Notes: generated by a model from the sequence alone, not told the origin. A stretch of 42,029 bases of DNA from an uncultured Zetaproteobacteria bacterium (GCA_964387725.1 CAYLYU010000001.1:2671-44699); one strand, 5' to 3'; counted from the stretch's first letter, positions 35,274 to 38,519 are shown. A program made the numbers and translations.

Positions 35274-38200
35274 CTAACCTCCAAACTCGAGCCAGCCCGA
35301 GCGAGTTCCGACAAAACGCTCCGAGATAAATTGCACATCGTCGGACCCTCCTATCTGAAATGACTTTTCGGGTTGGCGCGGATGGAGATTGGCAAGCAAC
35401 AGGAGCCTTTTGGCTGAATACACCGCCATGAAATCCTGTCTCGTATTCACATCAATCAGGCGTTCAAAACCGAAACGGGGCCACTCCTTTCTGATCTTTT
35501 GCAGAGTGATGACATCCTGTGTGAGCATATAATGTGCAATCTCGGACTTGAGACCAGCTGGCACGCTGCTTGATTTTCCCCATGGCTTGTTCTTGTCAAT
35601 ATATGACTGGAATTCTGTGAAAACTGTAGGCATCTCAAATATGTCAAACTTAACTTCCTGAACCCGGTTTTCCGTTTGCTGGCGAAAAGCCTGACGCAGC
35701 AGGGGAGAAAGCCACAGAACAGCAAATTCCTTGTTTCTAGATTGCGGCATATACATGGCCTGGGGCATACCTCCGCCATCGTAACCAATGGTTTCTTCCC
35801 CACCATCAACAATGTTTGCCTCGAGCCCGTCATCCTGCAGATATGCGCGCAGAATAGTTCCGAGCTTACTTAATCCCGCCTCATCAAAAACACCGTCATT
35901 GAATGATAGCAAGACATCACCCTGCGGCAACTCCATCTGCCCTGGCATCCCTCCAAAGCCACGACACTGCATGACGAGCAGGGCCTCGTCGCCGGATTCG
36001 CGTAACAAAACCTGATTAACGAGATTAAAGAGGTTTTCTTTGTTCTCGACCTTGATCAGATCCGATTTGCGATTCTGGTTGCTTTCGAAATGTGCCCCGC
36101 TGATTAGCAGTGCTCTGGCGTGCAGGCGTTCAAACAAAGATACGCCGTATTCAAAACTACTTAACTCGAAGAGTGGGCGAGGCACCTGGACAATAAAACT
36201 CTGAACCGCGCCCAGACGCAGCACATAGGTACCCCAGTAGTGTCTGTCGGACACATCTTCCCTGGCTGTAAGAACAAGGTATTGGCTATTGGTTAAGCGA
36301 TGTCGGTAACGGATTATACGATAATTAACTGCCGCTGCTGATATGGCGATGGCCCGAAGCTCCTCCAGACCGGCTTCAGTCCAGCTTTCCTTGGAAAATC
36401 CTCTGCTCGAAATATCGAGCAAAGGCGTCAAAACTTCCTGATCAAAGAATAACAGCTCTTCAACACGGGGCGGGACATATAAGTTCGTGCCTTTCTCCGC
36501 GATTTGCCCCTTACCACTCAACAACCAGTCCTGGAGATAACCATCAATGCGCTGTTCGCGAACTTCTAGCTGTAAGTCGAATTCTGACAACAGATATCTG
36601 GACATCAACTTTCGGACATCTTTTCGATTAAGCACAAGTTCGGCGAAACCGGACCTTGTTGAATCGCGCTGGATATTTTTTAAGGACGTGTTCGCCCAAT
36701 GAATATCAAAGCCGTCAATCATGTCTTTGATCAGCACCATGTTAAGATCCGGAGGTAACGTACCCTTGACCCAAAGGGCGCTCCTCAAGTCAGGCAAATC
36801 AATATCCTTCTCAATATCCCTGCGCACTCCGGCAATTCTCCGAGCCCTTTCCTGGGTATAACCTCTCACCTGCAGGACATCACGCCTTGCCAAGACTTTA
36901 TGAAAGGCATGAAACAGCGTATTGTAATTGGCAAGCACGTCGGATGCCTGATTCAGATTTGTATCCCTGGCCGCACCGGCTATAGCCAGGGCCCTGCCCT
37001 GAAGGGACTTGAACAGTAAGGCGCCTGCATTCATCGCTCCCCACTCATCAACCGGCGAAGGCACCTCAACAAGAAGGCGGCTGGGAGACTGAAGGTCGAT
37101 AACAAAAATACCCCAGCCACGTTTGAGTCCTCCTTCTTTCAGGTAAATATATCGATCTTCCAAAAGCGTGATTTGATAATCAACTCTCGACAACCGTGTA
37201 GCAGCTTCATTGAGACGTTCCTTATCACGATCCTCGGCATATCGAAGGATCGAGCGAACCCCTTCCGTGAATAAATCAATCTCCTGAGGGAGTGGGCTTT
37301 CAAAGCTATCCTGCGAACGCTGTTTATAAAGTTCAACCTGATCATCGCGAACAACCTCGGTAAGACGTTTCCCGGAGCGATCAAATACTACGGGACTTGC
37401 AACCGCTCCCGAGGGGACAGTCCACGTCCACAGGTTGGGAAGAAATGTCAGGGAAAAACCAACAGTACTTGCCACAATAACTGCAACCATAGAAGTCTGA
37501 AGTACGGTACGAGTCATCTTCACAGCTATATCCTTGTCGTACATCTTGATAGCAATCAAGGTAGAGAGGAGATAACCGAAGGCATAAAAATCTGTAACTC
37601 TTACTTCAGGGGCTACAGCCAGAAGAAGATAGCCGAGAAACATTTTGTACACAAAGCCAATATTGAAAAAGAGAAGCAGTTTTCGCCCACCTTCAATGCT
37701 TGCAGTGCGAAACATGGGAGACATTAAAATCAACTTGGCTACTAGCAAAATCACGAACGCTTCGGCAAAGGAAGCCAGGATTTTCATCGGCTGATACCAC
37801 TGCAAAGCCAGAAGCGCCGGAATCAATATACCACTGTAATCCCACCCATATCGGAGATTCATCCGTGACGCAATAAATGCGGCAACGATCAAGATGATAT
37901 ATGCCTTGGGGCCAGCCAGAATTGAGGAGGCAAGATCCTCGTATAGATAACCCAAATCGCTCAGACTCAGATTCGTGAACTCCAGGAGACCATAGCGAAC
38001 GATAAAGAAAGTCACCACTACGGGCACAACCAGCGGTGTGATACCACGAATAAAACCTGTTTTCCAAAATTGGTTTGCGATAAGAATGACGATAATCAGC
38101 CCGAGGCTGTGCAATGCATCCCGGTAATCAAACTGGATGTTATAATTATTTATCAGGTATTCACCAAATAATGGAAAAAACCAGCCGTCAAAGGTGATGC

Positions 38201-38519
38201 GTACAAGAACACTGATCAGAATCAAGGCAAAAAAGCGATCTCGTCCAAAGAAATGACACCATTTTCCCCATCGCGATAAATATTCCGAGAAGAGCCAGGC
38301 CAGAAGATATGTTACCACGCCTTCTACAGTAATCGCGAAAACAGACCACGGTTTGAGAATGAGGAGAGGCACAAGATAGCCCGGAACGACAAGGCCACCG
38401 AGCACCCAGCCAAAACGGAGGTTGAAAAACGCGATAACAAATACTCCAACCCAAACGGTTGTTACAACCGAGCTGGCCAGCCCTCCGGGCGGAAATATCT
38501 GCAGAGGAAAGAAATCCAT
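35274..38519 (-). CDS. Giant fusion: tandem PgsC/CapC-like membrane modules (about 12 TM) + ~720-aa extracytoplasmic region with two degenerate PghP-like modules
   Basis: 1081 aa. PgsC signature GWVLGGLVVPGYLVPL lies at nt 38373-38396, with a second copy GWDYSGILIPALLAL. Further motifs: FGRDRFFALILISVLVRITFD / EGGRKLLLFFNIGFVYKMF and LGLIIVILIANQFWKTG / FGYLLSTLIAIKMYDKD. The C-terminal modules lie at nt ~36600-37127 and ~35685-36242. Confidence 0.7.
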   Translation of the reverse strand: MDFFPLQIFPPGGLASSVVTTVWVGVFVIAFFNLRFGWVLGGLVVPGYLVPLLILKPWSVFAITVEGVVTYLLAWLFSEYLSRWGKWCHFFGRDRFFALILISVLVRITFDGWFFPLFGEYLINNYNIQFDYRDALHSLGLIIVILIANQFWKTGFIRGITPLVVPVVVTFFIVRYGLLEFTNLSLSDLGYLYEDLASSILAGPKAYIILIVAAFIASRMNLRYGWDYSGILIPALLALQWYQPMKILASFAEAFVILLVAKLILMSPMFRTASIEGGRKLLLFFNIGFVYKMFLGYLLLAVAPEVRVTDFYAFGYLLSTLIAIKMYDKDIAVKMTRTVLQTSMVAVIVASTVGFSLTFLPNLWTWTVPSGAVASPVVFDRSGKRLTEVVRDDQVELYKQRSQDSFESPLPQEIDLFTEGVRSILRYAEDRDKERLNEAATRLSRVDYQITLLEDRYIYLKEGGLKRGWGIFVIDLQSPSRLLVEVPSPVDEWGAMNAGALLFKSLQGRALAIAGAARDTNLNQASDVLANYNTLFHAFHKVLARRDVLQVRGYTQERARRIAGVRRDIEKDIDLPDLRSALWVKGTLPPDLNMVLIKDMIDGFDIHWANTSLKNIQRDSTRSGFAELVLNRKDVRKLMSRYLLSEFDLQLEVREQRIDGYLQDWLLSGKGQIAEKGTNLYVPPRVEELLFFDQEVLTPLLDISSRGFSKESWTEAGLEELRAIAISAAAVNYRIIRYRHRLTNSQYLVLTAREDVSDRHYWGTYVLRLGAVQSFIVQVPRPLFELSSFEYGVSLFERLHARALLISGAHFESNQNRKSDLIKVENKENLFNLVNQVLLRESGDEALLVMQCRGFGGMPGQMELPQGDVLLSFNDGVFDEAGLSKLGTILRAYLQDDGLEANIVDGGEETIGYDGGGMPQAMYMPQSRNKEFAVLWLSPLLRQAFRQQTENRVQEVKFDIFEMPTVFTEFQSYIDKNKPWGKSSSVPAGLKSEIAHYMLTQDVITLQKIRKEWPRFGFERLIDVNTRQDFMAVYSAKRLLLLANLHPRQPEKSFQIGGSDDVQFISERFVGTRSGWLEFGG

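Follow-up and report, generated by a model that had tools for sequence, protein, structure and literature searches.

How the PgsBCA machinery makes and exports poly-γ-glutamate (PGA) is a long-standing question, which extends to what PgsC and PgsA each contribute. PgsA/CapA is a membrane-anchored extracytoplasmic subunit thought to aid PGA transport (PMC5751247). PhoA fusions of Bacillus subtilis PgsC in E. coli located the C-terminus to the periplasm and the stretch near residue 73 to the cytoplasm (PMC7490850), and the structure of the hydrolase PghL has zinc ligands at H41, E46, and H102, a catalytic glutamate at E165, and an arginine, R171, that anchors a PGA carboxylate (PMC6506827). Here we analyze a 42,029-nucleotide stretch of DNA from an uncultured Zetaproteobacteria bacterium (GCA_964387725.1, CAYLYU010000001.1:2671-44699; called the window below), in which a single gene encodes two PgsC/CapC modules in tandem, followed in the same 1081-residue chain by two domains (CD1 and CD2) related to PGA hydrolases in predicted fold and by a short tail. 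With moderate confidence, we read this fusion protein as the inner-membrane core of a PGA synthase of the Gram-negative (diderm) type. CapC-family modules are already known; the tandem PgsC, the fused probable pseudo-hydrolases, and the widely conserved seven-gene operon to which the gene belongs appear to be undescribed.

Both halves of the membrane region are CapC-family modules. The full-length fusion matched PF14102 (Caps_synth_CapC) in two stretches (E 1.3e-39). Scanned alone, aa 1-190 aligned to profile positions 1-117 of 119 (aa 24-158; 90.5 bits, E 1.4e-25) and aa 191-380 aligned to positions 2-115 (aa 213-331; 65.3 bits, E 8.8e-18), and each half independently exceeded the PF14102 gathering score of 27 bits by a margin far larger than chance would give. 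The NCBIfam PgsC model, TIGR04011, likewise matched two stretches (62.7 bits, E 4.2e-17), with the module 1 match spanning aa 24-169. Three landmark segments of PgsC occur twice in the fusion: segment one as GWVLGGLVVPGYLVPL (aa 37-52) and GWDYSGILIPALLAL (aa 225-239), segment two as FGRDRFFALILISVLVRITFD (aa 91-111) and EGGRKLLLFFNIGFVYKMF (aa 276-294), and segment three as LGLIIVILIANQFWKTG (aa 139-155) and FGYLLSTLIAIKMYDKD (aa 314-330). An AlphaFold2 (AF2) model of the whole chain, with a mean predicted local distance difference test score (pLDDT) of 83 and a predicted TM-score (pTM) of 0.65, contains ~15 helices within aa 17-359, in keeping with two sets of six membrane segments. An earlier, sequence-only reading of this DNA had proposed a tandem PgsC module with about 12 hydrophobic helices and a C-terminal domain of ~720 residues, and all of this held: the landmark segments and five basic loops that it quoted are present in the translation where it had put them, the model accommodates the helices, and the region that remains after the second module is 721 residues long (aa 361-1081).

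Conservation of fusion residues, judged over an alignment of 41 homologues, marks similar positions in the two modules. Invariant residues are R35, G37, W38, P46, G47, Y48, E66, G92, R93, R95, N149, W152, and K153 in module 1 and N221, Y224, W226, P234, E253, R279, K280, and A323 in module 2, and the halves have in common an NL-x-x-GW motif, a proline (P46/P234) and a glutamate (E66/E253) within the membrane, and the basic loop GRDR/GxRK. The two glutamates (codons at about 38322-38324 and 37761-37763) lie midway along the third membrane helix of their respective modules and were invariant in 41/41 homologues; we regard them as a candidate functional residue of PgsC. Direct alignment of the halves with hhalign was weak (E 2.8e-4 over 48 columns), so the duplication is best demonstrated through the Pfam model and, judged by this divergence, is old as well as fixed across the fusion family. 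Sequence and profile searches of the PDB with the fusion family gave nothing useful; its sequences yielded no PgsC or PgsB relative, and the PGA synthase has no solved structure.

The C-terminal 720 residues had no Pfam, NCBIfam, PHROGs, or PDB sequence match, and the origin of this region emerged from comparisons within the operon. When slices of the family alignment were compared with hhalign, CD1 and CD2 aligned to each other (Prob 99.5, E 4.5e-23), as expected for a tandem duplication, and both aligned to the family of X294, a secreted 294-residue protein encoded two genes downstream (CD1: Prob 98.5, E 3.6e-15; CD2: Prob 95.8, E 7.7e-9). The X294 profile also matched the whole-fusion alignment (E 1.1e-12), and BLASTP of X294 against the fusion detected CD1 directly (E 1e-4, about 200 residues). 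By these profile comparisons, CD1 and CD2 are homologous to X294. The tail (aa 961-1081) had no Pfam, NCBIfam, or PHROGs match and was assigned no fold.

X294 connects the fused domains to PGA hydrolases. Its family is a group of its own, consisting of about 300-residue proteins without a Pfam domain. The AF2 model of X294 (pLDDT 89, pTM 0.87) has the carboxypeptidase-like α/β fold of PghL, and a Foldseek search with it returned as the top PDB match 5onj, which is PghL (YndL) with a bound γ-PGA peptide (E 3.6e-5, prob 1.0), and as the second 2odf, the Atu2144 gene product. Matches in BFVD were a Bacillus phage PGA hydrolase (E 1.5e-5), N-formylglutamate amidohydrolases, and zinc carboxypeptidases. 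Motifs in X294 (APH117-x3-D121, N143-T144, FH188G, and VE266MS-x3-R272) follow the order of those in the translation of PghP from phage phiNIT1 (SPH40-x4-E45, H78-x-T80, FH103G, and LE165IS-x3-R171), the residue equivalences being drawn from motif order and predicted fold rather than from a superposition. X294 has invariant H117, D121, N143, R147, D159, Q186, H188, G189, S208, H264, E266, and R272, and the first two, H188, and E266 were present in 30/30 homologues. It is thus predicted to keep the His/Asp/His/Glu/Arg catalytic set of PghP/PghL. The X294 open reading frame as called begins with GTG and overlaps the stop of the preceding propeller gene by 14 nt; an identical database protein, P0121, has 279 residues, which implies that a later start was called for it.

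The predicted catalytic residues of X294 have largely been replaced in both fused domains. The first zinc-histidine position is occupied by alanine, leucine, or serine at residue 488 in CD1 and by R781 in CD2 (40/41), the second by R552 in CD1 (40/41) and R853 in CD2 (41/41), and the catalytic-glutamate position by a hydrophobic residue in CD1 and by W936 in CD2 (41/41). R853 was equated with H188 through the motif Q-x-[HR]-[GA]-[FY], as the hhalign register is two residues off at FHG. Both zinc histidines and the aligned catalytic glutamate were absent from CD1 and CD2 in 41/41 homologues. An acidic ligand is retained in each domain (E492 in CD1, E785 in CD2), and R942 of CD2 (41/41) is retained at the position of the PGA-anchoring arginine. 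CD1 and CD2 therefore appear to be catalytically dead and, with invariant arginines where zinc histidines had been, are probably pseudo-hydrolases that bind a carboxylate-rich polymer without cutting it; together with X294, we infer, they form an enzyme and pseudo-enzyme pair. Their PghL-type fold is assigned through homology to X294 and weak zinc-peptidase matches of the full-length model. As modeled, the fused domains are of the PghP/PghL fold class, outside its sequence family, and lack its catalytic residues.

Several observations predict that this region is periplasmic. We set 12 membrane segments from the helices of the AF2 model and averaged lysine plus arginine (K+R) counts over the 41 homologues, which gave 14.7 on predicted cytoplasmic loops and 4.3 on predicted outer loops. 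The last loop, KMYDKDIAVKMTR, averages 3.95 K+R, and a single clean hydrophobic helix (aa 339-360) comes after it, an arrangement that would put the C-terminal region outside. X294 has a signal-like N-terminus, N-terminal signal-like hydrophobic segments are present in 23/30 of its homologues, some with lipobox-like cysteines, and the propeller and SPOR proteins of the operon likewise begin with signal-like segments. The predicted topology is N-out/C-out, and tandem duplication of a PgsC module of this kind requires no additional helix. The sequence-only reading had placed the C-terminal region outside the cytoplasm on the positive-inside rule and had supposed that it comprises polymer-handling modules. 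The first prediction is strengthened by the charge bias across homologues, the PhoA data for PgsC, and the secreted paralogue family; the second fits two copies of a PghP/PghL-like fold, although their apparent loss of catalysis had not been foreseen.

The architecture PgsC-PgsC-CD1-CD2 is, on present sequence comparisons, fixed in the family and tied to the operon. The closest homologue of the fusion is 94% identical and comes from a Mariprofundaceae genome, and all full-length homologues among the best 120 matches, which include proteins from Nitrosomonas, Parabeggiatoa, Thiodiazotropha, Magnetococcales, and Desulfohalobiaceae, are about 1050-1120 residues long and are named only 'PgsC/CapC' by NCBI. 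An exhaustive HMMER search with the C-terminal 701 residues yielded 703 clusters with E<=0.001, of which 284 reached E<=1e-30. In the top 150 matches, proteins of about full length (1035-1113 residues) align from residue ~360-450 onward, past an N-terminus of tandem-PgsC size; the one exception is P0251 (1037 aa), whose match starts at residue 2, and most of the shorter proteins look like fragments at contig ends. A scan of GTDB with one genome per species found the fusion gene in at least 435 species. Carriers include Legionella, Desulfobacter, Thiomargarita, Accumulibacter, Competibacter, Nitrosomonas, Thiodiazotropha symbionts, and iron-oxidising Zetaproteobacteria, with Legionella yabuuchiae, L. 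impletisoli, and Desulfobacter latus as cultured examples.

The fusion gene is the third of seven minus-strand genes separated by gaps or overlaps of 14 nt or less (Table 1). We retrieved 80 related loci and counted each neighbor over those loci whose contig is long enough to include it. Strand and order are kept in most of these loci in Zeta-, Gamma-, and Betaproteobacteria, Desulfobacterota, and Nitrospirota, and the linkage to a HEAT-PgsB gene, which the sequence-only reading had put forward as a check, recurs in 40 of the 45 loci long enough to show it. In the giant sulfur bacteria Parabeggiatoa and Thiomargarita (loci L007, L008, L004, L006, L018, and L029), the operon is rearranged or broken up: the propeller gene lies upstream on the opposite strand in L007 and L008, with X294 and the SPOR gene alongside in L007, and no operon neighbors adjoin the fusion gene in L018. 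In a Desulfobacteraceae locus (L022), HEAT-PgsB lies upstream of the kinase.

Table 1. Genes of the seven-gene operon and domains of the fusion protein, in order of transcription, with the occurrence of each neighbor in related loci (loci with the gene/loci with a long enough contig).
Feature	Position	Strand	Basis or note	Related loci
CHASE2-domain sensor histidine kinase, first gene	38900..41620	-	PF05226 E 6.8e-19; weak histidine-kinase matches	56/63
Single-domain response-regulator receiver	38529..38900	-	PF00072 E 4.8e-18	33/74
Fusion, PgsC-PgsC-CD1-CD2-tail, 1081 aa	35274..38519	-	single open reading frame at these coordinates, ATG start	
PgsC/CapC module 1, aa 17-181, six membrane segments	37977..38471	-	PF14102, TIGR04011, AF2 helices	
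PgsC/CapC module 2, aa 204-360, six membrane segments	37440..37910	-	PF14102	
CD1, first PghP/PghL-like pseudo-hydrolase domain (probable), aa 385-660	36540..37367	-	hhalign to X294 family	
CD2, second PghP/PghL-like pseudo-hydrolase domain (probable), aa 661-960	35640..36539	-	hhalign to CD1 and X294 family	
C-terminal α/β tail domain, aa 961-1081	35277..35639	-	AF2 secondary structure, pLDDT about 90	
BNR/sortilin-type β-propeller, 1150 aa, membrane-anchored or secreted	31818..35270	-	PF15902 E 4e-15	62/66
X294, 294 aa, secreted stand-alone paralogue of CD1/CD2	30947..31831	-	predicted active Zn-dependent γ-glutamyl hydrolase	53/58
Secreted giant protein, 1889 aa, SPOR domain aa 647-719	25281..30950	-	PF05036 E 1.2e-11	48/50
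HEAT-repeat and PgsB-like amide ligase (HEAT-PgsB), 1402 aa, last gene	21073..25281	-	TIGR04012, HEAT_2	40/45

In HEAT-PgsB, TIGR04012 (PgsB) matched aa 715-1057 with an E-value of 6.2e-59 and HEAT_2 matched with an E-value of 1.4e-7; PDB sequence and profile searches with this protein gave nothing useful. Its sole strong hydrophobic segment, LVVFASAFLLFFVGRHIYM (aa 709-727), stands directly before the P-loop GGWGTRGKSG and may be a true membrane span or a docking element for PgsC; a 700-residue HEAT region without a signal peptide precedes it, and about 340 residues follow the ligase domain. Bacillus PgsB, according to reviews, has a highly hydrophobic end. The propeller protein, which has an N-terminal hydrophobic segment, also gave BNR and Ycf48-like matches. 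The SPOR domain of the 1889-residue protein matched DedD and CwlC SPOR domains in the PDB and is the only recognisable domain of that protein, whose N-terminus is signal-like and whose C-terminal third may be an outer-membrane barrel. No scanned open reading frame of the window matched PgsA/CapA (PF09587).

A promoter-like TTGATT-18-TATAGT (41667-41638; region 41638-41687, minus strand) lies just upstream of the kinase start, and a GC-rich, terminator-like hairpin with a T-run (21030-21042, minus strand) lies about 30 nt past the HEAT-PgsB stop. These sites bracket the seven-gene unit, but such sites occur no more often in the window than in shuffled sequence, which leaves position as their sole suggestive feature. 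Elsewhere, the window has a cytochrome oxidase neighborhood with COX1, COX2, COX3, SCO1, UbiA-family (CtaB-like), and CtaA genes; a very divergent second COX1-like open reading frame (2624-3982, minus strand; E 9e-18, as against 2.9e-115 for the main COX1 at 7816-9486) adjoins CtaA.

In Gram-negative bacteria, we propose, the operon probably serves to synthesize and export a polymer of the polyglutamate type. The PgsB-like ligase would polymerise glutamate at the cytoplasmic face while docked to the basic loops that the tandem PgsC exposes there, and the tandem PgsC would act as a covalent pseudo-dimer and conduit that passes the growing polyanion outward. In the periplasm, CD1 and CD2 would catch the emerging chain by its α-carboxylates at their former active sites, now lined with arginines, thereby taking over the receiving or transport role of Bacillus PgsA, and X294 would trim or release chains. 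The propeller and SPOR proteins would then lead the polymer through the peptidoglycan and outer membrane, with expression controlled by the CHASE2 kinase. If the tandem PgsC is a covalent pseudo-dimer, then ordinary PgsC would work as a parallel dimer, and the natural tandem argues that PgsC does work as a dimer. In its fullest form, this model makes the operon an envelope-spanning, synthase-dependent secretion machine of diderm bacteria for a polyamide (γ-polyglutamate or a close relative), in which the covalent PgsC dimer shows the working stoichiometry of the synthase and hydrolase domains, duplicated, inactivated by His-to-Arg replacement, and fused to the synthase, form a periplasmic clamp that stands in for PgsA and passes the polymer to partners crossing the peptidoglycan and outer membrane; we advance that version tentatively, as possible but short of probable.

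A number of results weigh against this assignment or blur it. The fusion scored 62.7 bits against TIGR04011, for which the equivalog cut-off is 96.45 bits, and HEAT-PgsB scored 199.6 bits against TIGR04012, for which it is 222.7 bits. By these scores, the PgsC modules are divergent relatives of Bacillus PgsC and not equivalogs, and, with neither the PgsC nor the PgsB cut-off reached, the polymer may differ from the γ-PGA of Bacillus. Links to the hydrolases have similar weaknesses. TM-scores of the X294 model were modest (0.37-0.52; 0.37/0.52 for 5onj), and the full-length fusion model gave weak PDB matches (best E 0.15), the top ones being zinc-peptidase-type folds. Among 30 X294 homologues, there was no Pfam match at E<=1 to PF05908 or PF05013, and CD1 and CD2 had no Pfam match to these families; X294, CD1, and CD2 had no PHROGs match; PDB sequence and profile searches with the X294 family gave nothing useful; and hhalign of the X294 profile with the single PghP sequence gave an E-value of 0.31 and aligned the VE(I/M)S-x3-R strand only. 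The connection to PGA hydrolases therefore stands on predicted structure and motif order. Finally, CD1 has an invariant glutamate, E627, two residues from the aligned catalytic position, and for this reason some residual chemistry may persist in that domain.

These weaknesses leave room for a system directed at peptidoglycan, in which a Mur-ligase-type, PgsB-like enzyme and carboxypeptidase-fold proteins would build, attach, or edit peptide chains of the wall (γ-glutamyl or other) and SPOR would target the sacculus. The sub-equivalog scores of PgsB and PgsC would fit such a system, as would a peptidoglycan-binding SPOR domain in the 1889-residue neighbor and the appearance in the Foldseek lists for X294 and the full-length fusion of AmiP amidase_3, DapE, and Csd4, which determines cell shape in Helicobacter and was solved in complex with a tripeptide. 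We nevertheless consider it unlikely, as the top structural match is specifically the PGA-bound form of PghL, the E-x5-R motif that anchors PGA is conserved, PgsC modules are known from PGA synthases only, and the PgsB model was by far the best for the ligase domain, with no Mur ligase family matching at E<=0.01. Nor do we think it probable that CD1 and CD2 are metal-independent enzymes, for example a polymer-to-acceptor transferase or processing enzyme that uses the conserved Glu, Arg, and Trp residues. Invariant polar residues do line the former active-site strands (E492, Q550, R552, E627, R781, E785, D820, R853, and R942), and conservation of about 45-58% over 700 residues and across phyla is high for a pure scaffold. 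Loss of the zinc histidines and catalytic glutamate in every fusion homologue, set against their retention in every homologue of the co-encoded X294, is nonetheless the usual pattern of an enzyme and its pseudo-enzyme.

If the C-terminal 720 residues were instead cytoplasmic, they could dock or regulate the HEAT-PgsB ligase. The number of true membrane crossings in PgsC is not established, GFP data for the Bacillus protein were inconclusive (PMC7490850), the Pro-Gly motif segments at aa 37-55 and 139-152 could be re-entrant, and the stretch right after the last helix has 2.1 K+R on average. Yet the loop before that helix is strongly basic, the overall charge bias is pronounced, the C-terminus of Bacillus PgsC is PhoA-positive, the paralogous X294 family is secreted, and the neighboring operon products are envelope proteins, and we think a cytoplasmic location highly improbable. 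We favor a diderm PGA-type synthase with the C-terminal region in the periplasm.

The tandem PgsC offers a single-chain target for structural work, and the probable pseudo-hydrolase domains with their intact paralogue suggest directly testable hypotheses about what receives and trims the polymer once it is outside the membrane. With the operon in so many species, biofilms, metal binding, and wastewater granules in the carrier groups could be influenced by an anionic exopolymer that has gone unrecognised. In the literature, we found no paper on a tandem PgsC, on fused pseudo-hydrolases, or on the seven-gene operon, no description for this operon linking PGA with CHASE2, SPOR, diderms, or Legionella, and no paper combining PgsB, PgsC, and cryo-EM. 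Two apparent leads were unrelated: the stalk cluster sfz1-6 of Zetaproteobacteria is a BcsB-like/glycosyltransferase cluster, and the 'CapC' of the Lipocone paper refers to 'CapCone' families.

Compared with PgsC/CapC of B. subtilis and B. anthracis, each half of the fusion spans nearly the whole PgsC model above the Pfam threshold, and, like PgsC of PgsBCA(E), the fusion gene is linked to a gene for a PgsB-like ligase. The predicted C-out topology also agrees with that of B. subtilis PgsC in PhoA experiments. By contrast, PgsC is a stand-alone protein of about 150 residues (16 kDa), whereas the fusion combines two modules and 720 additional residues in one chain, has neither a PgsA nor a PgsE partner, and occurs in diderm hosts in an operon of seven genes, unlike PgsBCA(E) of Bacillus. 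CD1-CD2 resembles PgsA/CapA in being, by prediction, a large extracytoplasmic part beside PgsC, and we propose it as a functional analogue; it differs from PgsA/CapA in lacking homology, in being covalently joined to PgsC, and in having a peptidase-like fold.

X294 shares with PghP of phage phiNIT1 and PghL (YndL) a predicted fold and the motif order [S/A]PH, FHG[YF], and [VL]E[IM]S-x3-R, but has an extra N-terminal helical part and H-x3-D in place of H-x4-E. CD1 and CD2 depart further from these enzymes, as they lack the zinc histidines and catalytic glutamate and are tethered to a membrane protein.

The cellulose Bcs, poly-N-acetylglucosamine Pga, and alginate Alg systems are synthase-dependent exopolysaccharide systems of Gram-negative bacteria. 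The operon as proposed would follow their overall logic, with an inner-membrane synthase, an operon-encoded periplasmic enzyme that cleaves the polymer, and large periplasmic or outer-membrane partners. The operon described here differs in that no tetratricopeptide-repeat (TPR) porin or cyclic di-GMP receptor was identified in it, its outer-membrane component being presumed, and in that an ATP-dependent ligase, not a glycosyltransferase, would make its polymer, which would be a polyamide.

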